DNA of 64,000 bases from an uncultured Defluviitaleaceae bacterium (GTDB taxonomy: Bacteria; Bacillota; Clostridia; Lachnospirales; CAYYRV01). The notes beneath the pieces were generated by a model. The model ran no database searches. It saw only the letters and a program-made list of their open reading frames with translations, and was not told the DNA's origin. Positions 5,560 through 64,000 of this stretch are shown piece after piece (the first letter of the stretch is position 1; each line of letters starts with the position of its first letter). The translations under genes were made by a program, and so were the position numbers. Location of the stretch: positions 74,473 to 138,472 of the forward strand of contig CAYYRV010000002.1 of NCBI GenBank assembly GCA_964474135.1. Direction: 5' to 3'.

Positions 5560-6267
5560 TTAAACCCTTTCAACATTAATTACACCGTTAATAGCATTTA
5601 TTGAGTTTATTATTTCGTAATAATTAATACTTTGTTGTAGCTTTACCACAATTCTTATTGTAATAACGTCAGAATCAGTTATTTCATCATCTCCTGTACT
5701 GTCACTATTGTTACTGAAAAACTCCATATCTAAAATTTTGCAATTTGCTTTAGCAAGTGCTAAATTAATTGCTCCTAATGCTTTTGGTTTATTTGCTAAG
5801 TCTATCATTAGTTCTAATATATTTCCTGTTATTGCAAATTTTTTAGAAATTCTATTAAAAATAAATAATGTTAAGTATAGAACAATTGCAACAGTAATTG
5901 CCAATGAATAAAATCCAGCTCCAATAACAAGCCCTATTGCAGCAACAGCCCAAAGACTTGCAGCTGTTGTCAGCCCTCGGACATTTGAGCCTGAGTGTAT
6001 AATTGTTCCAGCACCCAAAAAACCTACACCGCTTATTACTTGTGCCCCAAGCCTTGCTGGGTCAGAAAGTATATTATAGTTCTGATAATAGTGTTCAAAC
6101 ATTAATGCAGAAAGAACCATAATAGTAGAAGCACCAAGACAAACTAAAATATGCGTCCTAAACCCAGCAGGTCTGTGTTTAGTTTGCCTTTCCATTCCAA
6201 TAAGCCCACCTATTAATACCGCAAGCAGAGTCCTAAATAAAATAATCCAATAACTCAACATATTCAC
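5560..6267 (-). CDS. mgtC: MgtC/SapB family membrane protein
   Basis: GMERQTKHRPAGFRTH motif, about five TM helices and a C-terminal ACT-like region. GTG start with GGGG SD. Confidence 0.8.
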   Translation of the reverse strand: MNMLSYWIILFRTLLAVLIGGLIGMERQTKHRPAGFRTHILVCLGASTIMVLSALMFEHYYQNYNILSDPARLGAQVISGVGFLGAGTIIHSGSNVRGLTTAASLWAVAAIGLVIGAGFYSLAITVAIVLYLTLFIFNRISKKFAITGNILELMIDLANKPKALGAINLALAKANCKILDMEFFSNNSDSTGDDEITDSDVITIRIVVKLQQSINYYEIINSINAINGVINVERV

Positions 6268-6276
6268 CCCTGTTCA

Positions 6277-6346
6277 AACATGAAAAATCTTGCGATTTTC
6301 GGATTGTTTCACAAGCCGGTTCGGGATTTACCAAACTCATGTTATA
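6277..6346 (-). promoter_or_regulatory. Copy B of the conserved 5'-leader element (unclassified), ending 9 nt before the mgtC start
   Basis: Gene-sense TAACATGAGTTTGG...CGGCTTGTGAAACAATCCG...GATTTTTCATGTT. Its 7-nt ends AACATGA/TCATGTT are perfectly complementary. 48 of 68 aligned columns are identical to copy D. Confidence 0.5.
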
Positions 6347-10955: not shown

Positions 10956-11050
10956 CCTTGAGGAAACTTTTGAAAAAGTTTCCTCAAACTCCTTCAAAAC
11001 TTTTATCAGAAACTCGTTTCACTCGTTTCTTTTGGGACTTAAGGTTTTTT
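10956..11050 (-). repeat. Family-1 unit (10956-11004, reverse) plus hairpin module X (11008-11030) and a T-rich tail
   Basis: 10956-11004 is the exact reverse complement of 30042-30090 (49/49). Block ends CTTAAGGTTTTTT and probably terminates the Lon-like gene. Confidence 0.85.
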
Positions 11051-11090: not shown

Positions 11091-13940
11091 ATGTCATTTG
11101 AAATAGTAGAAAAAACATATCTAAGTGAAATTTCATCACATGCATATTTATATAGGCATGATACAGGTGCTGAATTAGTATACATACAAAACAAAAACGA
11201 TGATAATAAAGTATTTTCTGTAACATTTAAAACACCTTCCCATAATGATACAGGGATTCCACATATACTGGAGCATTGCTTACTTTGTGGCTCACAAAAA
11301 TATCCTGTCAAAGACCCTTTCAACGAACTTTCAAAAGGTTCATTGTATACATATTTAAACGCAATGACATATCAAGACAAAACTGTTTACCCAATTGCAA
11401 GTTGTAATGAAAAAGATTTTATGAATTTAATGGATGTGTATTTAGATGCGGTTTTTTTTCCATTGATAGGTGAAAGACCTGAAGTCTTTATGCAAGAGGG
11501 ATGGCATTATGTTGTAGAGAATGAAGAGATAGCTGGCTATAATGGAATTGTTTATAGTGAAATGCAAGGGGTTTATTCTGACCCTTTAGAACTCCTTAAT
11601 TATTATTCTTATAAAAAGTTATTCGAGGGAAGCTTATACAGTTATGATTCAGGAGGAAAACCCGAAAACATAACTGATTTAACATATGAAAATTTTATGA
11701 AGTTTTACAACACGTACTATAAACCTTCTAATGCACATATTTATTTATATGGAGATTTAGATATTCAAAATGTAATGAAACATATTGATGAGAACTATTT
11801 ATCTATGGTTAAAGCTAGTAATACAGAACAATATGATGAGCCTAAAATGCCGACACCTCTTAAAGAACCTGTTTTTTTAACAGAAAATTATATTATATCT
11901 GATGATGAGGATACTTCAGGCAAAAATCATCTGAATATTTGTTATGCAATAAATGATACAGATAATAAAAGAATTATGGCTTTAAGTGTACTTAATCTTT
12001 ATTTTTTTGGAATGGAATCTTCTTTTGTAAAAAGAACATTAATTGATGAACAAATGGGACAAGAGGTAAGCGGATTTCTTGATTCAACTATAAAAACACC
12101 GGTTTTTAGCATAGTTTGTCAAAACTCACAAAAAACGGTTAAACAGCTTGATGAAATGTTTACAAAAACCCTTAAAGAAATTGTATATAAAGGCTTAGAC
12201 AAAGCATTGATTGAGGCTTGCTTGAATAAATTCGAGTTTAGTGTTAGAGAAGAGAATTTTGGTAATACGCCTAAAGGGCTTATTTACAATTTGAACATAT
12301 TAACTGATTGGATTTATGAAGGTGATATTTTCGGAAGATTGTCGAAAATTAGATATATTCAGGAATTAAGAAATGATTTGGGTTATTTTGTTGAAACTAT
12401 AAAAGAAGTATTTTTAAATAATAATTGGAAATCATGTGTTGAAGTAATACCTAAAAAAAGTTCTGAAAATTTAAAGGCTATTGATAAAGATAAGTTTAAA
12501 GATATTGATATTAAAAAAGTTGTTTGTGACTTAGAAAGGTTTGAGAAGTATCATAATTATGAAGATACTGAGGAAGATATAAACAAAATTCCTCTTTTGA
12601 CATTGGAAGATGTTAATACTGATGTTGAGAAAGTACCTGTTGTGAACACAAAAATAGAAGGTATTGAAGTTTTATTATCTCCACTTGATACAAATGATAT
12701 TATATATGGAGAGTTTTTATCAAATTCAAGAAATGTGCCAAAAGAAAGCTTGAATTATATAGGGCTTATGTGTTATTTGCTTGGGAAACTTCCAACAGAG
12801 AACTATAATTTAAACGATATAACGGAGCAAATTAATAGTAATTTAGGTGGATTAGATTTTTATTTTAGGACATTAACACCTGAAAGTGGAGACTACATGC
12901 CAGTAGTAGTTTTGAAAATTAAAGCTCTGCAAGCAAAGAAAAGAGAATTATTCAATATAGGCTTTGAGGTTGTGAAGAAAACGAGGTTTGATGATTATGA
13001 GGCAATTGGGAAACTGATAAAAGAACTTTTTTCAAAATTAAGTAATAGCTTAATAAACAATGGTCATAATTATGCGATTGGAAAGGTTCATTCATATATT
13101 TTTGAAGAAGGTAAATATGAGCAGGAAGTTTCAGGGCTAAGTTTTTATAATTTTATAAAAAACTTAGTTAAAGAATATGATGATAAAAAGGATATTATAA
13201 TAAAAGAATTAGAGAATGTTCAAAGCTTACTGTTTAACAAAGAAAATACAATATTGACATTTACTTGCAGTGAAACAGCATTTGCTAATATGAGAGATGA
13301 GTTGCATAGCTTTATATCTTTATTGCCTGATATAAAGATTAATATGCAAAATTATAATTTTGAAAAAGAGCATACAGAGGAGGGAGTTATTATTCCTTCT
13401 AGGGTGCAGTATTGTGTAAAAGGGTTAAACTATTTAGAAAGCGATATAAAATACACAGGTAAACTCGCTGTTCTTTCTAATATTTTAAATGGAGAATATT
13501 TGATGAAGGAAGTAAGAATAAAAGGCGGTGCTTATGGCTGTTACAATGGATTTAATAGAAAAGGTTTCTTTTATTTTTATTCATATAGAGACCCTAATTT
13601 GAGAAATACTTTAGATGTATATAATAATTTTACTACGTTTATTGAAAATTTAGAATTAAGCGAAAGAGAGATGTTAAAAAATATTTTGGGTGCTGTAAAC
13701 AAGTATATACGTCCAAAACATGTATCAGCAAAAGGGCAGTATGCAATTTTTTCTTATTTAAATAACATTAAATATGAAGATTTAGTAATGGAAAGAAAAG
13801 AGATTATTGAAACTACGTTTGAAGATATATTAAGATTAGGTAAAATAATGGGAATATTTAATAAAAATTATGTTTGCGTTGTGGGAAATGAAAAATCATT
13901 GCTCGAAAATAGTAGTTTATTTACAAATATTGTAAAATAA
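11091..13940 (+). CDS. M16-family zinc metallopeptidase (insulinase/PreP-like, M16C)
   Basis: HxxEH zinc site HILEHCLLCGS. Length of about 950 aa is typical of M16C. Confidence 0.85.
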   Translation: MSFEIVEKTYLSEISSHAYLYRHDTGAELVYIQNKNDDNKVFSVTFKTPSHNDTGIPHILEHCLLCGSQKYPVKDPFNELSKGSLYTYLNAMTYQDKTVYPIASCNEKDFMNLMDVYLDAVFFPLIGERPEVFMQEGWHYVVENEEIAGYNGIVYSEMQGVYSDPLELLNYYSYKKLFEGSLYSYDSGGKPENITDLTYENFMKFYNTYYKPSNAHIYLYGDLDIQNVMKHIDENYLSMVKASNTEQYDEPKMPTPLKEPVFLTENYIISDDEDTSGKNHLNICYAINDTDNKRIMALSVLNLYFFGMESSFVKRTLIDEQMGQEVSGFLDSTIKTPVFSIVCQNSQKTVKQLDEMFTKTLKEIVYKGLDKALIEACLNKFEFSVREENFGNTPKGLIYNLNILTDWIYEGDIFGRLSKIRYIQELRNDLGYFVETIKEVFLNNNWKSCVEVIPKKSSENLKAIDKDKFKDIDIKKVVCDLERFEKYHNYEDTEEDINKIPLLTLEDVNTDVEKVPVVNTKIEGIEVLLSPLDTNDIIYGEFLSNSRNVPKESLNYIGLMCYLLGKLPTENYNLNDITEQINSNLGGLDFYFRTLTPESGDYMPVVVLKIKALQAKKRELFNIGFEVVKKTRFDDYEAIGKLIKELFSKLSNSLINNGHNYAIGKVHSYIFEEGKYEQEVSGLSFYNFIKNLVKEYDDKKDIIIKELENVQSLLFNKENTILTFTCSETAFANMRDELHSFISLLPDIKINMQNYNFEKEHTEEGVIIPSRVQYCVKGLNYLESDIKYTGKLAVLSNILNGEYLMKEVRIKGGAYGCYNGFNRKGFFYFYSYRDPNLRNTLDVYNNFTTFIENLELSEREMLKNILGAVNKYIRPKHVSAKGQYAIFSYLNNIKYEDLVMERKEIIETTFEDILRLGKIMGIFNKNYVCVVGNEKSLLENSSLFTNIVK

Positions 13941-13997: not shown

Positions 13998-14138
13998 AGT
14001 ATTGTTTTATAATCTAAAAGATATAAATTAGAATAATAAAAAACTGCTATTAAATATCAATAACTGTAGTATAAATTGTTTATTATTAGTTGTTTTTGTT
14101 GAGTATAATACTGATTTTAGATAGAATGTCTGTATAAA

Positions 14139-14207
14139 ATTAGCGTGAGATTGGCAAAGTTGTAATCGGCTTGCGAGGCAAGCCGAAAAACACAACATTT
14201 TCACTTT
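14139..14207 (+). promoter_or_regulatory. Copy D of the conserved 5'-leader element (unclassified), 43 nt upstream of purM
   Basis: TAGCGTGAGATTGG, a 9-bp hairpin TCGGCTTGC-GAG-GCAAGCCGA (14166-14186), and ATTTTCACTTT (14197-14207). Confidence 0.5.
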
Positions 14208-14250
14208 AATTATATTTAATTGCTCCCTAAAATTATAAGGAGGAAAGTAA

Positions 14251-16028: not shown

Positions 16029-16078
16029 AAAAGTTTTGAAGAAGTTTGAGGAGACTTTTCCAAAAGTTTCCTCAAGGT
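16029..16078 (+). repeat. Family-1 stem-loop repeat, forward, inside the purN-purD spacer
   Basis: AAAAGTTTTGAAGAAGTTTGAGGAGACTTTTCCAAAAGTTTCCTCAAGG, 46/49 identical to the copy at 30042. No T-run follows. Confidence 0.85.
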
Positions 16079-17949: not shown

Positions 17950-18127
17950 AAATAAACTAAACGTTAGATTATTTAAGATGGGTTTGGAGTTATTACTTAT
18001 GCTTTTATTTTATTTAATATAAGTTTGGTGAAGTCAATTTGGATTAAAATATTATAAATATAAAAGGTTATGCATTTTTATATAGGTTTAAGTATAATTT
18101 CAGGCAAATTTTATTTAGGAGGGTTTT

Positions 18128-30041: not shown

Positions 30042-30090
30042 AAAAGTTTTGAAGGAGTTTGAGGAAACTTTTTCAAAAGTTTCCTCAAGG
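30042..30090 (+). repeat. Family-1 stem-loop repeat, forward, in the flgE-flbD gap
   Basis: AAAAGTTTTGAAGGAGTTTGAGGAAACTTTTTCAAAAGTTTCCTCAAGG, followed by TTTTAATATTTT. Confidence 0.9.
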
Positions 30091-33681: not shown

Positions 33682-34965
33682 ATGGGAGACATGCTTTCGC
33701 AAGACGAAATAAACGCATTGCTTGGCGGTATAAACCCCTCTGATGTTGCTCTTGATGAGGAAGCAGAAGTGAATGGATATACTGATGATACACTTACTGA
33801 TGAACATAAAGATATTTTAGGAGAAATTGGAAATATCAGTATGGGTACTTCGGCAACAACTTTGTTTGCTCTGCTTGGTCAAAAAGTTATAATAAATACA
33901 CCTAAGGTTAGCACTATAACTTGGCAGGAGATGACTGAGAGTTACGACAGACCGTGCGTAGGAATACGTGTAGATTATAAGGAAGGGCTGGAAGGCTCTA
34001 ATATACTGATATTAAAAGAACATGACGTTAAAATAATTTCTAATTTGATGATGGGTGGAAACGGTCAAGTAGAAGATGAGGTAGAATTATCAGAAATTGA
34101 CTTAAGTGCTATTGGTGAGGCAATGAATCAAATGGTTGGTTCATCCTCTACCTCTATTTCTTCAATGATTAATAGGAAAATAGATATAGACACACCACAT
34201 GCATTTTTATTGGATTTTGAAGAAGTAGGAACGTTTTTTAATGAAGTTGGGTTTTCGCCCGACGAAATAATAGTATGTGTAAGGTTTAAAATGCAGATTG
34301 GAACACTTATAGATAGTGAGATTATGCAAATATTGCCAAAGGAGTTTGCTATAGAGATGGTTGAGACTCTTAAAAAAGAAATGATGTCGACTGCATCACC
34401 CCAAGATGAAGAAAAACAACTTTTTGATGATATTACGGCTCAAGAGGGGAATAACATTCCACCAACGCCTTCTCAGGCTCAATATGGTGCTCCTCCGCAA
34501 CAGCCATATGGTATGCCACCACAACAGCAATATGGTATGCCTCCGCAACAGCCATATGGTGTGCCACCACAGCAACAATATAATGTACCTCCGCAGCAAC
34601 CATATGGAAGTGCTGTACCACCATATAATCAATATACACAAAATCAGATGAACCAAGATTACAATGTGAAGCCAGCACAATTTCAAAATTTTGATGTTTC
34701 TGCTGTTATGCAGCAAAAGGAGAACATTGATATAATAATGGATGTTCCTTTGGAGGTTACTGTTGAGTTAGGCAGAACAAACAAAAAAATTAGAGAAATT
34801 CTTGAATTTTCTCCAGGAACTATTATTGAATTAGATAAATTGGCTGGAGAACCTATAGATATTTTAGTAAATGGTAAGTTTGTTGCTAAAGGTGAAGTTG
34901 TAGTTATTGATGAAAATTTTGGTATAAGAATTACTGATATAATAAGCCCAGAAAAGAGAATATAA
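33682..34965 (+). CDS. fliY: Flagellar motor switch protein FliY (CheC-like N-terminal half plus FliN C-terminal domain)
   Basis: LSQDEINALL, CheC-like region, C-terminal FliN/SpoA domain. Contains an internal P/Q-rich repeat. Confidence 0.9.
   Translation: MGDMLSQDEINALLGGINPSDVALDEEAEVNGYTDDTLTDEHKDILGEIGNISMGTSATTLFALLGQKVIINTPKVSTITWQEMTESYDRPCVGIRVDYKEGLEGSNILILKEHDVKIISNLMMGGNGQVEDEVELSEIDLSAIGEAMNQMVGSSSTSISSMINRKIDIDTPHAFLLDFEEVGTFFNEVGFSPDEIIVCVRFKMQIGTLIDSEIMQILPKEFAIEMVETLKKEMMSTASPQDEEKQLFDDITAQEGNNIPPTPSQAQYGAPPQQPYGMPPQQQYGMPPQQPYGVPPQQQYNVPPQQPYGSAVPPYNQYTQNQMNQDYNVKPAQFQNFDVSAVMQQKENIDIIMDVPLEVTVELGRTNKKIREILEFSPGTIIELDKLAGEPIDILVNGKFVAKGEVVVIDENFGIRITDIISPEKRI
34492..34611 (+). 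repeat. In-frame tandem repeat, 5 x 24 nt (PPQQ[PQ]YG[MV]), inside fliY
   Basis: Units 1 and 3 are CCTCCGCAACAGCCATATGGT(A/G)TG. Units 2 and 4 are CCACCACA(A/G)CA(G/A)CAATAT... This gives a 48-nt super-period. Confidence 0.85.
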
Positions 34966-38890: not shown

Positions 38891-39052
38891 GGGGAGGAAA
38901 CTTTTGAAAAAGTTTCCTCCCCAAACCCCTCCTTTAAAACTTTTATCGGAAACGCTGTGCGTTTCCTTGCTGCTTCTTTTGTCTCTTATCTAAGTACAAA
39001 ATTAAAGTTTTTTGAAGGGTTTGGGAGACTTTTTTCAAAAAAGTCTCCTAAG
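38891..39052. repeat. Inverted pair of family-1 units (38891-38944 reverse, 39004-39052 forward) flanking hairpin module X (38948-38966)
   Basis: GGGGAGGAAAC...GTTTCCTCCCCAAACCCCTCCTTTAAAACTTTT, then GGAAACGC-TGT-GCGTTTCC, then AAAGTTTTTTGAAGGGTTTGGGAGAC...GTCTCC. Confidence 0.85.
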
Positions 39053-47984: not shown

Positions 47985-48078
47985 TTTTGGGGCTGAATGC
48001 CCTAAATATTAATATCAGAAACATAAAAAAGAGGAAACTTTTCAAAAGTTTCCTCTTTTTTATGTTTTAAAAACTTTT
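47985..48078. repeat. Mosaic repeat block: GGGGC/GCCCT module with TAAATATTAATAT tail, then a 45-nt near-perfect palindrome built on the family-1 hairpin
   Basis: ACATAAAAAAGAGGAAACTTTT-C-AAAAGTTTCCTCTTTTTTATGT (48021-48065), then TTTAAAAACTTTT. Confidence 0.85.
48021..48065. terminator. Bidirectional rho-independent terminator between convergent genes
   Basis: 22-bp arms with an A-run on the left and a T-run on the right. Confidence 0.7.
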
Positions 48079-51736: not shown

Positions 51737-51760
51737 AATTATTGTAATATAAATTAATTT

Positions 51761-51795
51761 AAGTTCGGTGCAGTAGGACAGCATCGAACTTTTTA
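51761..51795 (+). terminator. Rho-independent terminator of htrA
   Basis: 11-bp stem AAGTTCGGTGC/GCATCGAACTT (one G.U), 9-nt loop, then TTTTA. Confidence 0.6.
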
Positions 51796-51840
51796 TATTT
51801 ATGAATACATACAATTACCATAAATTTTTTAAAAAAACAC

Positions 51841-51868: not shown

Positions 51869-52112
51869 ATGTATATAAAGAGATTTCTTCTAAGAGCGAG
51901 TTAATACTATGTTTAGAACCAACAGATTTTTTACGGGATATTAGGACTCTTTGAACGTATTTGCATGCTGTATCTTAATACAGAGCATGAAACTCGAAGG
52001 ACTGACTACCACCTTATTTTAAGGTTTTAAAATTTGTTAAAATACGCCTTAGCAGAGTCTTTTTTTGTTTATTGGGTTTGTGACTTGTTGCAGTAAAAAA
52101 GGTGGAATAAAT

Positions 52113-55971: not shown

Positions 55972-56015
55972 AATTAACAATATGATTATAAAAAAGTATT
56001 TAAGGAGTTTTGTTA

Positions 56016-56050
56016 TGTCGAACTCATGTTGAATTAACATGAGTTCGACA
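56016..56050. repeat. Perfect 15-bp palindrome built on the TAGCATGAGTTCG-type core
   Basis: TGTCGAACTCATGTT-GAATT-AACATGAGTTCGACA, between convergent genes. No flanking T-run on either strand. Confidence 0.7.
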
Positions 56051-56080
56051 ATGTTGTACTAGCTTTAGAAACAATTCAGG

Positions 56081-57649
56081 TTAAGCTGATTTTTTAAGTA
56101 TTAGAAGCTTCTGACCTGGAAAAATTTTATTAGGATTTTCTATTTCGTTTACCATAAGTAAATCATCAATAGAGGTATTATATCTTTTGGCAATTTTCCA
56201 AAGATTATCGTCACACTGTACGACATAAATAGTCATGCTTGCCATTTTATCAAGTAATGATTTGTCAATATCAACAAATTCAATATCTGTAATCATATTT
56301 GCTTGCTGCTCATCAATTACTTGTGTGCTAAAACTTAATAAAAATCTAAGTTCCATTTCTTTTCCACTTAACATATTAAATCCCACATGGTCTATACTTG
56401 CGTCAAGTTCCACACTCATGCCAGGAGAAGCACCTTTTGTCTCGATAATTTGTCTATATGGAATAATAGGTTTATATGAGAAAAGCGGTGTCGTATCACT
56501 TTCTGCTACATACAAAACGTCAGCTTCAATTATTCCCTCAACGATAACTTTATCTTCTATTACTTTTGTTTCATCTATATAAGGTTTACCTTTCACCCTA
56601 AATATTTGTAAAATATCAGGGCAGTTAGATTCTAGCTGTACAACTTCTTTAATAGGGCTTTGATTTTTGTTTCTGCAAACTAGTTTAGGGTAATTAATAA
56701 TATCTTTGCTAATATTCAGATTTTTATTTATACAATAAGCATCCTCTAATATCTCAAGTGTTTCTTGACAATGTATTTTAGCAAGAATACCAATAGAAAT
56801 TTCTACTTCTATAACCCTGTCTTCTCCATCAGAATCGGGTCTTGCCTGTATATATTGGTCTTGAACATTTAGGAAGACATCTGCCAACATATCATCTTTT
56901 GCATTTGAAATATCAATTGAACCGTTAAATGGTACTTCATGTTCAACAAATTCGATTAAACTGCTTTCGTCGTCTCCTCTGTATAATGTAGATATAATAA
57001 GTTCTCCATTTACAGTTACTTTTCCATTTGAAACTCTTACTTCCTTATTAGATACCATAACATTACATTGCAAAATTTCACGAATGTTAGGTTTGCCCGA
57101 TGTAATTGTTAGTTCATCTTTAATTATAAACCTGTCAACTTTATTTTCTATACTTCTGTTTAAGGACAAATTTGTTTTAAGCAATTGATTTTCGGGTATA
57201 TCGCTTATATTTACAACAATCTCATGTTCTTCTGTTTTTTCGCATACAACGCATATATCCGCAACTGCTCGATAACTTACTTTCCTATCATTAAGCATTT
57301 TATAATCTACATTTGTAAGTTCAGCCTTTACCTCAACCCACATATCTTTTGTTACGCCTTCCATGTTTATAAAATCATCAATATTTGTTGTTACACTCAT
57401 ACTATGTACAGGCTTATCGTTGCCTTTTGATAAATATAATACTTCAACATCTAGCTTTCCAATAAAGTTAACCCTATCATTTGAAACATCTGTGCGTTCT
57501 ATGCATATTTTTGCATCTGTTTGCAGTATAACAGCCATATCAGGTTTTATGTCTGGTACAATCAAATCTCCCTCCAATAAAATCTGTGTTGTCTCCTTGC
57601 CTACTTTCTCATCTAAAGTTATTTTTTCTCTTATTAATTCATTTGACAT
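56081..57649 (-). CDS. LysM-domain protein with repeated DUF3794/SPOCS-like domains (spore-coat/cortex-associated type)
   Basis: C-terminal LysM domain (YVVQCDDNLWKIAKRYNTSIDDLLMVNEI..PGQKLLI). AGGAGG SD. Confidence 0.7.
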   Translation of the reverse strand: MSNELIREKITLDEKVGKETTQILLEGDLIVPDIKPDMAVILQTDAKICIERTDVSNDRVNFIGKLDVEVLYLSKGNDKPVHSMSVTTNIDDFINMEGVTKDMWVEVKAELTNVDYKMLNDRKVSYRAVADICVVCEKTEEHEIVVNISDIPENQLLKTNLSLNRSIENKVDRFIIKDELTITSGKPNIREILQCNVMVSNKEVRVSNGKVTVNGELIISTLYRGDDESSLIEFVEHEVPFNGSIDISNAKDDMLADVFLNVQDQYIQARPDSDGEDRVIEVEISIGILAKIHCQETLEILEDAYCINKNLNISKDIINYPKLVCRNKNQSPIKEVVQLESNCPDILQIFRVKGKPYIDETKVIEDKVIVEGIIEADVLYVAESDTTPLFSYKPIIPYRQIIETKGASPGMSVELDASIDHVGFNMLSGKEMELRFLLSFSTQVIDEQQANMITDIEFVDIDKSLLDKMASMTIYVVQCDDNLWKIAKRYNTSIDDLLMVNEIENPNKIFPGQKLLILKKSA

Positions 57650-57684
57650 AAAAGAATACCTCCTTTATATATGATTTGTTTTAA

Positions 57685-57701
57685 ATTAGCATGAGTTCGA
57701 T
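57685..57701 (+). repeat. Solo core motif ATTAGCATGAGTTCGAT, antisense to the LysM-gene leader
   Basis: Lies 36 nt from the LysM gene start codon. Inverted relative to the core inside copy A. Confidence 0.45.
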
Positions 57702-57763
57702 AATATAAAATTGCTTGAATTTTTGATAATATGAGCACAAATTTATACAAAATTTATGCTTAT

Positions 57764-57832
57764 AACATGAAAAATATCATGGTTTTACGTTTGTTTCACA
57801 ATCCAATTTGACTACACCGAACTTACATTAAA
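57764..57832 (-). promoter_or_regulatory. Copy A of the conserved 5'-leader element (unclassified), 114 nt upstream of the LysM gene
   Basis: Shares exact AACATGAAAAAT and TTGTTTCACAA with copy B at identical 15-nt spacing. 32 of the first 41 positions are identical. Confidence 0.5.
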
Positions 57833-57973
57833 TTATGTTAGTTTTTTAAAACAAATCATTATTAGCCAGTTATACTTAATATATTATGCTAGAAGGTGAT
57901 TTATGATTATTATTATTTCAATCAAGTTAAAGTTGGGCTAGACAATGCTGCAATTAATTAATAATTTTCATAC

Positions 57974-58007
57974 AAAAAAGCTGTCAAACTTATATTTGAC
58001 AGCTTTT
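57974..58007 (-). terminator. Rho-independent terminator of the tRNA cluster
   Basis: 13-bp stem AAAAGCTGTCAAA/TTTGACAGCTTTT. The minus-strand transcript ends in TTTTTTG. Confidence 0.7.
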
Positions 58008-58019
58008 AATAAAAAATAA

Positions 58020-58093
58020 TAGCGGAAGAGGGATTTGAACCCCCGACACTGCGGGTATGAACCGCATGCTCTAGCCAACTGAGCTATTCCGCC
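58020..58093 (-). tRNA. tRNA-Met (anticodon CAT), elongator-like; an Ile2 (lysidine) identity cannot be excluded
   Basis: GGCGGAATAGCTCAGTTGGCTAGAGCATGCGGTTCATACCCGCAGTGTCGGGGGTTCAAATCCCTCTTCCGCTA folds as a cloverleaf. No encoded CCA. Confidence 0.9.
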
Positions 58094-58101
58094 AAAATAT
58101 A

Positions 58102-58174
58102 TGGGCACAGAAGGGCTCGAACCTCCGACATCCTGCTTGTAAGGCAGGCGCTCTCCCAGCTGAGCTATGCGCCC
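58102..58174 (-). tRNA. tRNA-Val (anticodon TAC)
   Basis: GGGCGCATAGCTCAGCTGGGAGAGCGCCTGCCTTACAAGCAGGATGTCGGAGGTTCGAGCCCTTCTGTGCCCA. No encoded CCA. Confidence 0.9.
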
Positions 58175-58186
58175 GGGTTGTGATAA

Positions 58187-58263
58187 TGGTCTGGGTGACA
58201 GGATTTGAACCTGCGACCTCTAGAACCCCATTCTAGCGCGCTACCAAGCTACGCCACACCCAG
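58187..58263 (-). tRNA. tRNA-Pro (anticodon GGG), CCA encoded
   Basis: CTGGGTGTGGCGTAGCTTGGTAGCGCGCTAGAATGGGGTTCTAGAGGTCGCAGGTTCAAATCCTGTCACCCAGACCA. C1-G72 pair and G37 are typical of tRNA-Pro. Confidence 0.9.
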
Positions 58264-58338
58264 AAGAAGACCTCTTAAAACATACTTTTAAAAAATCACC
58301 TTCAATAAGGGTTTTAATATCATTTGACAACGAAATAC

Positions 58339-58367
58339 ATTGTAGCATACGTTATAAAACAAGTCAA
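58339..58367 (-). promoter_or_regulatory. Strong sigma-A promoter of the tRNA cluster
   Basis: Minus strand reads TTGACT, 17 nt, TGc-TACAAT. Lies about 75 nt upstream of tRNA-Pro. Confidence 0.6.
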
Positions 58368-58487
58368 TAGTTTTTTTAACATATTTTTTTATTTTTTATT
58401 ATAATGGTTAGATGTAGTTTACAATTAGTTCGACGAAGCCAAAGCGACTTGTTAATTAAAGAAAAAATCATAATATCTTATGTTCTG

Positions 58488-58538
58488 TAATATTAGCATA
58501 AGTTTAACATTGTATTTGCTAAACTTATGCTAATATTA
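58488..58538. repeat. 19-bp perfect palindrome carrying a core-motif variant (ATTAGCATAAGTTTA)
   Basis: TAATATTAGCATAAGTTTA, a 13-nt loop, then TAAACTTATGCTAATATTA. Lies 60 nt downstream of the spoIIM stop. Confidence 0.65.
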
Positions 58539-58597
58539 TTAAAAGTCCTTCATAATACGAGCTACATCGGAATACTAGCAGTATTTTTATATTAAAA

Positions 58598-59212
58598 TCA
58601 ATTTAGAAATGCACTTTTTACTAAATTAGGAACTACATAAACTTCCAATAGACTTGTAAGTATTGCAAATAAGCAACATATTAGAAGTATGCAAAAATAT
58701 TCCTTTAAAAAACTTGAATCTTTTTCTTTATTATTATTAATATTAAAAAGTATGTAATTTATTGAGCAATACGACGTAAAAAAATATGTAGGTATTATAA
58801 TTATGCTTTGAGGTAAGTACACTATCGCTGCTGTTATTGCACCATAAAAGCCAAATTGTTCTATTAGAAGCCCTGTGGTAAAGCCATACCCTGCTCCTTT
58901 TACCAACAGCAGTATGAAAACGATAAATCCTCCTGCCGGAATAAATCCAAGCAACCATATAATAATAACTAGCTTTGTATGTTTAAATATGCTTTCTCTA
59001 AGCCTGTCCATTTTATCAGCATTGTTAATATTGTTAAAAGAATGTAGATAGTCTTTAATAGAGACAGAAATCTCATTGAAGTATGCTCCATCTAAGGATT
59101 TTACAGAAATAATTCCTACAGCCAAACCTGCTACAAAACATAATGCAATTAATGTTAAAATAGCTTGTTTTTTTGTAAATACAAACTTTTTATGCTTTCG
59201 TTTTTTTACCAA
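58598..59212 (-). CDS. spoIIM: Stage II sporulation protein M
   Basis: About 200-aa polytopic membrane protein with pattern LVIIIWLLGF...VKGAGYGFTTG. TTG start after a GGGAGG SD. nudF-spoIIM neighbourhood. Confidence 0.7.
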   Translation of the reverse strand: MVKKRKHKKFVFTKKQAILTLIALCFVAGLAVGIISVKSLDGAYFNEISVSIKDYLHSFNNINNADKMDRLRESIFKHTKLVIIIWLLGFIPAGGFIVFILLLVKGAGYGFTTGLLIEQFGFYGAITAAIVYLPQSIIIIPTYFFTSYCSINYILFNINNNKEKDSSFLKEYFCILLICCLFAILTSLLEVYVVPNLVKSAFLN

Positions 59213-59312
59213 TTCGATATTCCTCCCTTGTAAGATTCTGTATAAAATATATGCTTATTATATATATTCTTATAAGAGAGGCATTATAACCCAACATTTT
59301 TTTAGTTAAAAA

Positions 59313-59363
59313 AAGGATAGGAAAGCTTTTTTAAAAAAGTTTTCCTATCCCTTCAAAAAACTG
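59313..59363 (-). repeat. Family-1 stem-loop repeat, reverse, diverged stem
   Basis: GGATAGGAAAGCTTTTTT-A-AAAAAGTTTTCCTATCC followed by CTTCAAAAAACTG. Confidence 0.7.
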
Positions 59364-59382
59364 AGACTAGTTTTAGTTCATA

Positions 59383-59922
59383 TTATTTGTTTTTGCTTAA
59401 CAATTCTTTATATGCCAAAATAGCAACCATCGTTTTAGAATCTTTTATTTTTCCATTAAAAATCATTTCAACAGATTCATCTAAAGAATATTTTTCTATA
59501 GCAACAAATTCATCTTCATCTAAATTTTGTTTGCCCTCATATAACCCCTCTGCAATATATATATGAAGCATTTCGGTACAGAACCCAACAGCTGAATACA
59601 TTTTTGTAAGAAACTCAATTTTTGAAGCTTTAAATCCTGTTTCTTCTTCAAGCTCTCTTTCTGCACAGTCATATGGGTCTTCATCTTTCTCAAGTGTGCC
59701 TGCAGGAATCTCAAGAATATGTTCTAAAGCTGGGTGACGATACTGTCTGACAAATATAATATTACCATCATTGTCTATAGGTATTATTGCAGAAGCCCCA
59801 TTATGAATAATAATTTCTCTAATTACTTCTTTGCCATGAGGCATTAAAATAGTATCCTGAACTACTTCTATTATTTTTCCTTTAAAAACCTCATTACGTT
59901 TTATAAATTTATAATTGTCCAT
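59383..59922 (-). CDS. nudF: NUDIX hydrolase (ADP-ribose pyrophosphatase-like)
   Basis: Nudix box GTLEKDEDPYDCAERELEEETG. Confidence 0.8.
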   Translation of the reverse strand: MDNYKFIKRNEVFKGKIIEVVQDTILMPHGKEVIREIIIHNGASAIIPIDNDGNIIFVRQYRHPALEHILEIPAGTLEKDEDPYDCAERELEEETGFKASKIEFLTKMYSAVGFCTEMLHIYIAEGLYEGKQNLDEDEFVAIEKYSLDESVEMIFNGKIKDSKTMVAILAYKELLSKNK

Positions 59923-59944
59923 ATTATTACTCCTTTCCTTTTTT

Positions 59945-60090
59945 AGTTAATAGTTTGGGGCTTTCATCCCCAAACCCCGACTTCTTTCTTAAAAGAAAGA
60001 AGCAAAGAATTTTTGCTAGAAACGCACTTTGTGCGTTTCTTTTTCCTTGCTCATTTATAGTGGTTAATCTTTTGCAAACCTAAGGTTTTT
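59945..60090 (+). repeat. Mosaic repeat block of three consecutive hairpin modules plus a T-rich tail
   Basis: GTTTGGGG-CTTTCAT-CCCCAAAC (59953-59975), CTTCTTTC-TTAAAA-GAAAGAAG (59981-60002), AGAAACGCAC-TTT-GTGCGTTTCT (60018-40), then ...CCTAAGGTTTTTTT. Confidence 0.8.
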
Positions 60091-60105
60091 TTATAAAAAA
60101 TAAAA

Positions 60106-61494
60106 TTAAAACTCACAGTTATTAACAGTTCTAGGGAAAGGTACAACGTCCCTAATATTTGAGATACCTGTAATATACATAATTAATCTCTCGAATCCTA
60201 AACCATAACCTGCATGTTTAACACTTCCAAATCTCCTTAAATCCAAATACCACCAGTAATCATCTTTACTTAATCCCAATTCTTCCATTCTATTTTCCAA
60301 AACATCTAAACGTTCTTCCCTTTGGCTTCCTCCAATAATTTCTCCAATACCCGGAACAAGCAAGTCCATAGCAGAAACTGTTTTGTTATCTTCATTTATT
60401 CTCATATAAAACGATTTAATTTCTTTAGGGTAGTCTATTACAAAGACAGGCTTTTTATATACTGTTTCTGTAATATATCTTTCATGTTCTGTCTGAATGT
60501 CTGAACCCCATTTAACAGGATATTCAAACTTTACATCAGCTTTTTCAAGAATATCTATTGCTTCTGTATAAGTAATTGTTGCAAATTCAGAATTTAAAAT
60601 ATTATTAAGTCTCTCTGTAAGCCCCTTATCAACAAAGCTGTTAAAAAACTCCATTTCTTCAGGGGCATTGTCCATAACATACTTAATTATGTGCTTTAAC
60701 ATATCCTCTGATAATTTCATAATATCTTTTAAATCGGCAAATGCTATTTCAGGCTCTATCATCCAAAACTCTGCTGCATGTCGAGTTGTATTTGAGTTTT
60801 CAGCACGGAATGTAGGTCCAAAAGTATAAACATCTCTAAAAGCCATTGCAAATGTCTCAGCTGAAAGCTGTCCACTTACAGTAAGACTTGCCATTTTCCC
60901 AAAAAAGTCTTCCTTAAAATCAATACTACCTTCTTTAGTTTTTGGAGGGTTGTTTAAGTTTAATGTAGTAACTTGGAACATTTCCCCAGCACCTTCACAA
61001 TCGCTTGCTGTAATAATAGGCGTATGTGCGTATACAAATCCTCTTTCATTAAAGAACTGGTGTATAGCATATGAAGCAAGTGAACGTACTCTAAATACTG
61101 CCGAAAATGTATTTGTTCTTGGACGCAAATGAGCAACAGTTCTTAAATACTCAAGCGTATGGCGTTTTTTTTGTAACGGGTAGTCAGAAGCAGAATTACC
61201 TTCTACAATTATATTTTCTGCTTTTATTTCAAATGGTTGTTTGCTTCCTTGGCTTTCAACAACTTTTCCTGTTACAGTAATACTTGCTCCTGCTCCAAGT
61301 TTTGTTATTTCTGTAAAATTTTCAAGTTCATTTAAAAAGACAATTTGTATACTTTTAAAAAAACTTCCGTCGTTTAATTCTATGAATCCAAAGTTTTTAT
61401 TATCCCTTACAGTTTTTACCCATCCTCCAACAACAACTTCCTTATCCATATATTCTTCATGCTGTTTATAAATGTCTTTAATTTTTGTATACAT
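60106..61494 (-). CDS. asnS: Asparagine--tRNA ligase
   Basis: Class IIb synthetase, 462 aa. [21 protein letters not shown] and GYGLGFERL motifs. Confidence 0.95.
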
Positions 61495-61555
61495 AGAAAC
61501 ACTCCTAAATTTATTTTTTATTTTTAATAAAATTCATATGGCTTATAAATTGATT

Positions 61556-63082
61556 TTATACTAAAGGAGAAACTATCCTCAAAAAAGCCCTCCACATTTT
61601 TTTAGAAAAGCTTTGAGTCTTCCATTTTTCATAATCTATTTCGACAGAAATTTCCATAGTTTTAATAAAATCTTCTTTAAGTTTATATACACATTCTGTA
61701 TTATACATAAAAACTCCGCATTCATAATTCCAAATAAGACTTCTAAAATCAAAGTTTACAGAACCGATAAAGCAAAATTTATCATCTGAAACAATAGACT
61801 TTGCATGTACAAATCCTGGTGAATACTCAAATATTTTAACACCTGAGTTTAAAAGTTCCTCATAAAATGACCTTGTTTCCTCATGTACAAACATTTTATC
61901 AGGTATAAATGGTGTTACGATTCGCACATCAACTCCGCTTTTTGCAGATAAACATAATGCTGAAATCATATCAGAATCAATAACGAGATATGGTGTATAA
62001 ATATATACGTATTTTTCTGCTGTTGATATAATTCTTCTATAATTTAATTCTGCTGGGTTATAATGGTTTGTTGGCCCGTCTCCAAAAGGAACTACATAAC
62101 CATTTTCTTCATTAAATGACAATGTTGGTCTATATATTTCGAAATTACTTTCGCTTTTTGTAATAATATCCCACATTTTGAGGAATAAAACAGTAAAACT
62201 CCATACAGCATCACCTTTAAGCATTACAGCATTATCTTTCCAATGCCCATGTTTAGGGTAATCATTAATATATTCGTCTCCTATATTTATACCACCTGTA
62301 AAACCTACATTACCATCAATTACTACAATTTTTCTGTGGTCTCTATAATTCAAATAACCATATACCGAAAAGGAAAATGGATTGAATGCAAAACATTGTA
62401 TTCCATGTTTATTACAGTCCTCTTGAAAATTTGGAGGCAATATTTTTAAGCTTCCTACTTGGTCATAAATAATTCTTATTTCTACACCTTCAGCAGCCTT
62501 AGCATAAAGGCATTCCATAATCTCTTCTTGCATTCGCCCTTTGCTTATAATAAAAAACTCAATAAAAATGAATTTTTCTGCTTTGGATAATTCATTTTTT
62601 AAAGCTTCAAACAACTCCTCTCCTAATTTTAGGTAAATACTTTTAGTATTTTTATAAACAGGAAATCCTGATGTTTTAAAAAGCATATTAATATTGTTTT
62701 TTGCTTGTAAATCCTCAATCTCATTAATTATTTCATTATTTTGTTTAAGAAGGTTTTCTGTTCTTTTATTAATGTTGTTAATATATACTTCGGTTTTCTT
62801 TGAAATCCTTGTTGTACCCCATAAGAAATAAAATAAAATACCACAAATAGGAACTATCAATATAAAAAGAACCCATGATAATTTAAACGTTATTTTGCCA
62901 GGCTTATATATTATATTTAAAATCATAGCAATACCAATAAGTTCTGCAAAAATATAAACATAATCCCAGACTTCCCAAACCCTAAATATTACAAAAGCTA
63001 GTAAAATTAATTGAACAACTATAAAAAAGATATTTATAATTGTTTTTAGCATATTACCAAAATCTAAACTGCCTACTTTCAA
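61556..63082 (-). CDS. cls: Cardiolipin synthase
   Basis: Two HKD motifs (HRKIVVIDG, HAKSIVSDD) and N-terminal TM helices. Confidence 0.9.
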   Translation of the reverse strand: MKVGSLDFGNMLKTIINIFFIVVQLILLAFVIFRVWEVWDYVYIFAELIGIAMILNIIYKPGKITFKLSWVLFILIVPICGILFYFLWGTTRISKKTEVYINNINKRTENLLKQNNEIINEIEDLQAKNNINMLFKTSGFPVYKNTKSIYLKLGEELFEALKNELSKAEKFIFIEFFIISKGRMQEEIMECLYAKAAEGVEIRIIYDQVGSLKILPPNFQEDCNKHGIQCFAFNPFSFSVYGYLNYRDHRKIVVIDGNVGFTGGINIGDEYINDYPKHGHWKDNAVMLKGDAVWSFTVLFLKMWDIITKSESNFEIYRPTLSFNEENGYVVPFGDGPTNHYNPAELNYRRIISTAEKYVYIYTPYLVIDSDMISALCLSAKSGVDVRIVTPFIPDKMFVHEETRSFYEELLNSGVKIFEYSPGFVHAKSIVSDDKFCFIGSVNFDFRSLIWNYECGVFMYNTECVYKLKEDFIKTMEISVEIDYEKWKTQSFSKKMWRAFLRIVSPLV

Positions 63083-63323
63083 AAAAACACCTACTCTGAT
63101 TATTATTTTTAATGTTTATATTGAGATGAAAAATGCAATTTTAAGCTTGTTTTACAAGACGATTGCACTTTGTCTAACTCACTATATTATTATAACTTTT
63201 TCAAAATAATATAAACATTTGAAAGACTTATCACTTGTCATATATGAAGTTAGTAATATATTCTATAATAATAATTTGGAAATGTCGATATATAATAATG
63301 ATTTTTATAAAATATAGTAAAAA

Positions 63324-63357
63324 TAAAAAAACCTTGAAGCTAATACAATCAAGGTTT
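63324..63357 (-). terminator. Rho-independent terminator of the small Cys-rich gene
   Basis: AACCTTGA/TCAAGGTT stem. The minus-strand transcript ends in TTTTTTT. Confidence 0.65.
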
Positions 63358-63368
63358 AGAGACAGGGG

Positions 63369-63399
63369 TTGGGGTTTATAGCCCTAAAATATTAATATT
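63369..63399. repeat. GGGG/CCC hairpin module with TAAAATATTAATAT tail
   Basis: TTGGGGTTTATAGCCCTAAAATATTAATAT parallels 47987-48015 TTGGGGCTGAATGCCCTAAATATTAATAT. Confidence 0.6.
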
Positions 63400-63411
63400 G
63401 TAAATTCTAAT

Positions 63412-63684
63412 CTATTGAACAGTTTTTTCTTTTTTTATATTATTTTTCGCTTCCATAAATTGATTATATAAATTTTCTCCAATACAGTCTTTTGCGTAAT
63501 TACACCAACTTATACAAGATTGAGAATCATTATATGCAACAAAACCACATTCTGTACAAGATGTTTTTACGTCGCATGAAAACAGTTCAATTTCATTACC
63601 ACATTCAGGGCAAAGTTTTATTTTTAAGGTAGGTGCACCTTTAATATTACTAGCACCCGGACAGCCATTTAACATATAAATCAC
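63412..63684 (-). CDS. Small cysteine-rich protein (zinc-ribbon CPECG...CTECG plus a C-terminal CxxWCxxxxxC cluster); function unknown
   Basis: Ten Cys in 90 aa. Has its own terminator. Start may be the internal Met (MLNGCPG). Confidence 0.5.
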   Translation of the reverse strand: MIYMLNGCPGASNIKGAPTLKIKLCPECGNEIELFSCDVKTSCTECGFVAYNDSQSCISWCNYAKDCIGENLYNQFMEAKNNIKKEKTVQ

Positions 63685-64000
63685 CTTCTTAATCTTAAAT
63701 TTTCATATAATTTTTTCAATATATTTATATTGTTTCATAATAGTTAAAGTATAGTATAAGTTTTATAATAATTCGGTTGTATTTACAACGGATAATAATA
63801 TTTTTTGTAATTACTAGTATTACAATATAATAAAAAAGCAGGTAATTTTGGATATTTTTTGCTAAATTTGCATAAACATTGTTTATATATTAACAAACAT
63901 CACTATTAAATATAAATTTATTTAATTTTTTTGTAATTATTGTATACTTTTTTTTTGTTTTTTACTGTACATTATAAAATTTGTTTGGTATAATTTTATT

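Follow-up and report, generated by a model that had tools for sequence, protein, structure and literature searches.

Several described bacterial systems resemble parts of the element reported here, a unit of about 70 nt that recurs in a 64-kb stretch of DNA (hereafter, the window; 31% G+C) from an uncultured Defluviitaleaceae bacterium (contig CAYYRV010000002.1). Pneumococcal BOX elements are assemblies of modular hairpin boxes; they are longer, occur in both orientations, and often lie in the 5′ regions of genes. REPs carry a conserved 5′ tetranucleotide of the GTAG type, shield upstream mRNA from 3′ exonucleases and, like IS200/IS605-derived elements, are usually oriented with the replication strand. 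The ermC and aprE leaders contain 5′-terminal stabilizer stem-loops, the closed 5′ structure protecting the message against 5′-end-dependent decay. Finally, bacterial miniature inverted-repeat transposable elements (MITEs) are noncoding, A+T-rich, <200 bp in length, and bounded by terminal inverted repeats with TA termini; their dispersed intergenic copies form subfamilies with internal indels and are co-transcribed, the transcripts folding into stem-loops, and the effects of ERIC on mRNA depend on its orientation (PMC2229807).

An initial annotation of the window had noticed the element in the sense-strand leaders of four genes: mgtC, purM, ppiB, and a "LysM gene" whose product is more precisely a SipL-type sporulation protein. 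The four copies (A to D) lie where that annotation placed them, with a similarity far above chance in shuffles and nhmmer searches. A sequence profile and a covariance model enlarged the family beyond these four, to five intact copies, with copy F added, and at least seven degenerate or hairpin-only ones, all intergenic (Table 1). The covariance model (R1) consists of a 9-bp closing helix and an 8-bp core hairpin and was run on the window with filters off; it scored the intact copies at 49–78 bits and gave a marginal tail at 12–21 bits, with the degenerate members among that tail. No further copies were found in the 4.2 kb to the left and the 5.9 kb to the right of the window, which were examined as well. 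The downstream genes have no common function: they encode a cyclophilin (ppiB), MgtC (on record as a 233-aa product starting at ATG 6261), PurM, SipL, cardiolipin synthase, and FlgB. That unrelated genes carry one leader would be explained if copies of a short repeat had dispersed between the genes of this lineage, without any old, shared regulatory RNA. We judge, with moderate confidence, that the family is a lineage-specific short interspersed repeat of the MITE/BOX/REP kind and not a conserved regulatory RNA or riboswitch.

The copies resemble one another well beyond their boxes. As first reported, B and D are identical in 48 of 68 aligned columns, linkers included, and A and B at 32 of 41 positions (78%). 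Identity along the whole unit, linkers as well as boxes, fits recent common descent. Short A+T-rich words do recur in a genome of 31% G+C, and the leaders might owe their likeness to that alone, but the shuffle and leave-one-out statistics refute chance similarity and leave it a negligible place among the explanations. The window contains four instances of the apex word TTGYGARRCAA, where 0.40 would be expected and none of 100 shuffles reaches four, and a composite pattern of the 3′ half occurs four times against 0.00 expected. With B as the only query, nhmmer retrieved D (E = 1.7e-5) and A (E = 0.033), and profiles built without the copy in question recovered F (E = 1.7e-6) and a copy in a second genome (E = 4.7e-4), here called L039 after its locus.

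Table 1. Copies of the element and of a second repeat family in the window
Feature	Position	Strand	Score (bits)	Setting and sequence
Copy B, intact	6276-6344	minus	77.9	Ends 15 nt before mgtC ATG (6261); 5′ box TAACATGAG, three hairpins, 3′ box TTCATGTT(T)
Copy D, intact	14141-14208	plus	78.4	42-43 nt before purM ATG (14251); core hairpin a perfect 9 bp, TCGGCTTGC/GCAAGCCGA
Copy A, intact sequence, poor fold	57763-57830	minus	72.8	113-114 nt before sipL ATG (57649)
Copy C, intact, extra 14-nt hairpin ATGGACGTCCAT	1910-1982	plus	49.5	26-27 nt before ppiB ATG (2009)
Copy F, intact, newly found	63117-63186	minus	68.5	34 nt before start (63082) of cardiolipin synthase (PLD) open reading frame
Degenerate 5′ half TAATATAAGTTTGGTGAAGTCAATTTGGATT, A subtype	18014-18047	plus	16.9	~80 nt upstream of flgB
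Degenerate copy TAAGTTCGGTGcAGT, A subtype	51754-51801	plus	19.9	Directly 3′ of htrA-like gene
Degenerate head-to-head pair	55977-56032; 56034-56084	minus; plus	20.9 + 21.5	Between convergent genes
Degenerate copy	57686-57761	plus	15.7	Antisense to sipL, tail-to-tail with copy A
Degenerate copy	58419-58476	plus	18.0 and 18.5 (given for 58419-58533)	Profile E 0.0068; antisense to both neighbors (tRNA genes, spoIIM)
5′-box palindrome	58493-58533	plus		TATTAGCATAAGTTTA...TAAACTTATGCTAATA; 3′ of degenerate copy 58419-58476
Family 1 repeats	2596-2621; 10960-10985; 16048-16073; 30061-30086; 38894-38919; 48039-48067	both orientations

The anatomy of the element resembles that of a very small MITE. 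The unit is 68–75 nt long and A+T-rich (G+C 0.29–0.41), and the ATG or GTG in its 5′ box opens no conserved reading frame, so that it is noncoding. TA stands at both termini in five of six copies (A, C, D, F, and L039), while B has TA at its 5′ end and TT at its 3′ end. A terminal inverted repeat of 8–9 bp, TAAC[A/G]TGAG ... CTCATGTTA, encloses two or three modular hairpins. Its arms pair perfectly in B (AACATGA/TCATGTT), as had been noted, at 9 of 9 positions in L039, one of them a G-U pair (TAACGTGAG/CTCATGTTA), and at 8 of 9 in F (TATAGTGAG/CTCAATATA); in this helix formed by the ends (helix 1) 86.5% of the cells pair. The word TAACATGAGTTCG represents the element end against which the ends of a partner transposase or insertion sequence would be compared. 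In size class, A+T-richness, inverted termini, TA ends, dispersal, and subfamilies, the element is like the Correia/NEMIS elements of Neisseria, RUP, and ERIC/IRU. It differs from them in being shorter (68–75 bp vs. 105–170 bp), in having a terminal repeat of just 8–9 bp, and in the strict sense bias of its intact copies in the window. It has no sequence similarity to those of these MITEs that could be compared, and no partner transposase was found in 74 kb.

Inside the closing helix, the element is built of modules. In the 5′-box hairpin (GAGTTYG...CRAACTC), the 3′ half of the box is joined to a complementary stretch close by, through GUUUGG/CCGAAC in B and through UUCGAC/GUCGAA in L039. The core hairpin, TTGY-NNN-RCAA, has an extension that makes a perfect stem of 9 bp in D, pairs at 6 of 7 positions in B (both as originally described), and has decayed in A and F. 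A further helix is possible between two conserved boxes, AAAA and ATTTT, of B, D, A, and F; L039 lacks this AAAA/TTTT module. An extra hairpin is inserted in C and in L039, and in C it is the 14-nt insertion between otherwise unchanged boxes that the initial annotation had reported. An A subtype is common to A and the degenerate copies at 18014 and 51754, a C subtype unites C with the L039 copy, and the linker GTTCGACGAAG is shared by the window copy at 58419 and L039. Thus, judged by sequence, the family falls into subfamilies that cut across loci and genomes. Modular hairpin boxes with variable internal modules, an intergenic location, and a frequent position 5′ of genes recall the boxA-boxB-boxC organization of BOX, a likeness of architecture only: the host lineage and the sequence differ, and the intact window copies are in sense only.

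The smallest members resemble REPs. The isolated 5′ box, TARCATGAGTTYGR, recurs in perfect or near-perfect inverted pairs. In the copy at 51754-51801 it folds as a hairpin, AAGTTCG...CGAACTT, with a T-run after it; in the head-to-head pair at 55977-56084 the inverted 5′ boxes pair to give a perfect 15-bp palindrome at 56016-56050 (TGTCGAACTCATGTT-gaat-TAACATGAGTTCGACA); and the copy at 57686-57761 has a 5′ box, TAGCATGAGTTCGA, that is the exact consensus. Forms of 35–45 nt that consist of a hairpin alone are found right behind stop codons or in the gap between convergent genes (51761-51791, 56016-50, 58493-58533, and L039:12413-12433, the last a 5′-box hairpin directly 3′ of the lonC stop codon). 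Together with the modular hairpins, these forms are what one would expect of a REP/BIME-like or IS200/IS605-derived palindrome that a Y1 (RAYT/TnpA) transposase mobilizes in single-stranded form, instead of a MITE with terminal inverted repeats. However, the 70-nt members occupy 5′ regions, the element is without a conserved GTAG-type tetranucleotide at its 5′ end, no Y1 transposase and no associated RAYT is present in the sequence examined, and orientation is not tied to the replication strand, since C and D are on the plus strand and B on the minus strand within one domain of positive GC skew (1–56 kb). We consider such a mode of movement unlikely. The skew itself is negative over the last 8 kb of the window (56000-64000), coinciding with a run of minus-strand genes; either the coding strand or a switch of replication strand may account for the change.

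The position of the copies relative to genes shows what the repeat carries. All five intact copies lie in sense, 15–114 nt before a start codon. The distances of 27, 43, and 114 nt given earlier were right, but the 9 nt given for B were not: the mgtC start is the ATG at 6261, so that B ends 15 nt upstream of it. The co-orientation with the downstream gene that had been claimed for the element holds for the intact copies and fails for the degenerate ones, which are also found in 3′ regions and antisense (58419-58476, 57686-57761; 55977-56084 lies between convergent genes). Since the room left before the start is only 15 nt in B, 26 nt in C, 34 nt in F, and 42 nt in D, not enough for a promoter, these copies must form the transcribed 5′ end of the mRNA or overlap its promoter. 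Directly 5′ of the element, D has a promoter-like TTGAGT-17-TAGAAT (ending at 14127) and F a promoter-like TTTATA-18-AATAAT (ending at 63186), and another was recognized by eye at B (TTGACA-17-TATTAA at 6375-6347); the promoter scan found no such site in the 135-nt spacer upstream of C. Similarity between copies stops at the 5′ box, with none further upstream, and the promoter is therefore not part of the repeat. Thus, the repeat carries the leader and not the promoter. Among the roles suggested initially, a mobile promoter-leader cassette comes closest, in that the repeat looks to be of a mobile type, but the promoter half of that proposal falls away, because similarity ends before the promoter region and C has no detectable promoter.

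A role at the DNA level could take two forms. The TAnnnT of the 5′ box might act as a −10 element, so that a repeat inserted downstream of any −35-like sequence would create a promoter, or the palindromes might be operators for dimeric regulators. Each 5′ box indeed fits TAnnnT (TAACAT, TAGCGT, TAATGT, TAGCAT, TATAGT, TAACGT), a TTGAAC lies exactly 17 bp upstream of the TAACGT of L039 and a TAGATA lies 17 bp upstream of the TAGCGT of D, and the perfect 15-bp palindromes are made of the 5′ box. Yet the promoter scan calls none of these and, for D and F, places better promoters immediately before the element, and B, C, and F have no −35 partner at 16–18 bp. The best palindromes lie between convergent genes, a senseless place for an operator, and the G-T pairs in the stems favor pairing of RNA or single strands over recognition of a duplex. 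A promoter or operator function is accordingly improbable in our view. Other candidate signals were rejected as well. An internal promoter with TTGYGA as −35 has no consistent TAnnnT 17 nt on, and the scan calls none; an upstream open reading frame from the 5′-box ATG would have no ribosome-binding site, and its frame is unconserved. Inspection by eye eliminated a sigma-54 −24/−12 promoter (wrong spacing), a PurBox (CCGAAC in B alone), a Spo0A 0A box (a perfect TGTCGAA in the 56016 palindrome alone), a CsrA GGA loop (L039 only), and CodY, Rex, and cre boxes.

A separate observation concerns sipL. Its leaders in relatives (L124:150-232, L125:9900-10000, and L127:2690-2757) have in common a sigma-E-like GCATAWW, a gap of 13–16 nt, and an ATAATAT-like box, and in the window a similar word, GCATAAAT, directly follows copy A, at 57757-57750. 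It is therefore possible that sipL has its sporulation promoter between copy A and the gene, in which case copy A would lie outside that transcript.

The distribution of the element in other genomes is patchy and fits a repeat specific to one lineage. The host belongs to an isolated, poorly sampled lineage of Clostridia: its LonC has one identical database entry, the next best being only 67–68% identical, and the neighbors named by database matches are metagenome-assembled genomes (MAGs) of Clostridiales, Defluviitaleaceae, and Lachnospirales. The idea of a leader conserved in the comparative sense did not survive this comparison. No copy was found in about 65 kb of the closest relatives' loci, from three sister genomes (L036, L038/L127, and L125), where about four would be expected at the density of the window, and none in ∼1.25–1.3 Mb of metagenome contigs anchored on LonC (80 loci, all ≤60% identity). 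In the one orthologous leader examined, that of sipL, the element is absent from L124, L125, and L127, whose SipL proteins are 65–71% identical. Among 185,579 species genomes (596 Gb, evidently not including the host's own), the exact pattern AAAATN{4,7}TTTTNNNNTTGYYTYRCAAKMC gave 34 single matches in unrelated taxa, as chance would; the two matches in Clostridia lie inside coding sequence and are thus due to chance. Searches of plasmids by BLAST returned noise only, eight matches in viral contigs, all in one phage coding region, were set aside as chance, and a literature text search for the 5′-box string gave a single irrelevant match. PurM orthologs proved too conserved to guide us to relatives, the top match (P0121) being an internally duplicated PurM on an unrelated contig.

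The sole copy that model R1 finds in ∼1.25 Mb of related contigs is that of L039 (GCA_964545475.1, LonC 68% identical), a full copy at 13516-13584 beside truA, at a nonorthologous site. Two independent assemblies of this genome, the NCBI MAG and a Logan contig, end inside the copy or 13 nt past it (L039:13516-13597 and L040:5843-5879). That both break at the copy suggests that it is a repeat, one of several near-identical ones in that genome. We also note a 116-kb viral contig (IMG/VR UViG_3300033146_001917) with an intergenic element of 74 nt at L133:2373-2446, ∼40 nt before a gene start, reading ATGTAACATGAGTTCG ... two hairpins ... TCATGTTACAT. Its terminal inverted repeat, a perfect 11 bp, uses the terminal words of the window family; its core differs, and model R1 gives it no score. 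The pattern that found it is estimated to give a few matches by chance in that collection, so that it is at most a candidate relative.

Comparison with described RNA families gave no counterpart. At gathering thresholds, Rfam 15 recognizes three tRNAs only in the window, and permissive E-value scans, made on four regions, gave nothing relevant, those over the B, D, and A/58419 regions returning nothing but noise (such as snoU109, GcvB at 19 bits, and miRNA precursors), in agreement with the initial annotation, which recognized no Rfam family in the element. Like riboswitches and other Rfam leaders, the intact copies are structured, on the sense strand, and just upstream of coding regions. Unlike them, they are alike along their whole length and not only at a ligand-binding core. 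The functional unrelatedness of the downstream genes, from which the initial annotation had argued against a metabolite riboswitch, stands, and such a riboswitch is very unlikely.

A different possibility is a dedicated cis-regulatory RNA in the 5′ untranslated region that defines a lineage-specific regulon. A single trans-acting protein or small RNA (sRNA) would dock at the 5′ box and the TTGY-NNN-RCAA hairpin and co-regulate mgtC, purMN, ppiB, cls, sipL, and the flagellar operon, the element possibly having been recruited from a repeat. Conservation is in blocks (5′ box, TTG..CAA, AAAA, and ATTTT). Copy B is predicted to fold into helix P1 plus three hairpins, with a minimum free energy of −19.7 kcal/mol and a z score of −3.7, and B, D, F, and L039 all fold better than shuffled sequences (z = −2.9 to −3.8). 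Pairs were counted in six intact copies, five from the window and L039, which are related and from which the structure itself was derived. By this count, 84% of stem cells pair, against 33–52% in slid controls, and three pairs change on both sides. At the fourth position of the core hairpin stem, B, A, and F have a U-A pair and D and C a C-G pair, one P1 pair is A-U, G-U, or G-C in different copies, and a P2 hairpin is present in B and L039 despite their different sequences. The covariation score is 0.208, compared with 0.133 in shuffles, and 22 of 500 shuffles reach 0.208, values that relatedness of the sequences alone can yield. Covariation is therefore weak, suggestive only, and the test has little force with six related sequences. 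Moreover, A and C fold no better than shuffled sequences (z = 0.0 and −1.2); by these predictions, structure is decaying in some intact copies. The orthologous sipL leaders and nearly all related contigs lack the element, degenerate copies lie antisense and in 3′ regions, and the set of genes has no common theme. A dedicated regulon is hence a minority reading, possible and yet clearly less probable than a repeat. The initial annotation had itself held that copies in random orientation or inside genes, a lack of covariation, or a match to a known element would count against a conserved leader; antisense and 3′ degenerate copies and weak covariation are what we found, together with no match in Rfam.

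The repeat interpretation has its own difficulties, and several of them also count in favor of a cis-regulatory RNA. First, all five intact copies are in sense and lie closer to the start codon that follows than to the gene that precedes them, with a chance of about 1 in 32 for each feature, and their orientation tracks the gene, not the replication strand. Simple neutral insertion fails to predict this placement. Second, the stem cells that are not Watson-Crick pairs are mostly G-U (10 G-U cells), G-U outnumbers A-C, and in six of six copies the sense strand gives a better fold than the antisense strand does. Orientation bias, G-U excess, and sense-strand folding together hint at selection at the RNA level. 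Third, the copies are old, with ∼55–70% of aligned columns identical between pairs, and the terminal TA is weak evidence of insertion, as in DNA of 31% G+C it may be a mere part of the repeat. Finally, no pair of filled and empty sites is available from which a target-site duplication could be read, the same strain being identical in two samples and the flanks of relatives being too diverged, and there is no transposase among the annotated products of 74 kb of the host genome (window plus flanks).

A short interspersed repeat that is transcribed from outside promoters could nevertheless accommodate the sense bias. Transposition or recombination would have carried the copies into DNA that is rich in TA and close to promoters. 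On the sense strand, their ends would pair, and the RNA would fold as a closed multihairpin structure at the 5′ end of the mRNA, where its most likely effect would be a generic, orientation-dependent one on 5′-end stability or processing. Sense copies would then be tolerated or mildly beneficial, and antisense and 3′ copies would decay. Because of the G-U excess, the better folding of the sense strand in all six copies, and the orientation bias, the data suggest a transcript-level filter or benefit acting on sense copies. Its most plausible form, going by the predicted folds, would be a closed 5′-terminal structure with an influence on how stable the mRNA is or how it is processed; neither ligand sensing nor a dedicated control of the downstream genes is likely. 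Transcription of B, D, and F is predicted to start at the 5′ box, and with such a start the ends would pair and the mRNA would begin with a closed structure, much as in the ermC and aprE stabilizers. Those stabilizers are gene-specific, whereas the element described here is a repeated family.

Three other features of the window were noted along the way. A second repeat family (family 1 in Table 1) consists of GAGGAAACTTTTnnAAAAGTTTCCTC palindromes with 50–95 nt of flanking similarity and occurs in both orientations at gene ends; a Logan contig of the host genome ends inside one of its members, at about window position 10980. At 51881-52062 on the plus strand, between the htrA-like and rseC-like genes, a match to 6S RNA (RF00013) scores 29.7 bits, below the gathering threshold of 46.4 (E = 1.8e-4 in a 334-nt search), and has a promoter-like TTGATT...TATAAT upstream; from its sequence, it is probably a divergent ssrS of this lineage missed at the Rfam threshold. 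Lastly, at 34480-34623 on the plus strand, five to six tandem coding repeats of 24 nt, encoding ~(Q/P)YG(M/V/A)PPQQ, lie in the open reading frame 33682-34965 of the flagellar block.

Small structured repeats are common yet almost unstudied in uncultured Clostridia, and the family described here may be useful in several respects. First, it is a caution for motif searches, as a foldable leader common to unrelated genes may be something other than a family of regulatory RNAs. Second, the element marks repeat-induced contig breaks in these MAGs. Third, a compact family of ∼70 bp whose intact window copies are all in sense in gene leaders is a test case for distinguishing transcript-level filtering of a repeat from its recruitment as a leader. 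The latter could have gone further, although we think this rather doubtful: a young repeat may have been exapted into a lineage-specific post-transcriptional regulon, in which sense copies on at least five to six mRNAs (mgtC, purMN, ppiB, cls, sipL, and the flgB operon) would present the 5′ box and the triloop hairpin to one partner, a single RNA-binding protein, RNase, or sRNA. If that were true, genes for Mg2+ homeostasis, purine synthesis, membrane lipid, motility, and sporulation would be coupled, and a regulon would have been caught while being wired by a mobile element.

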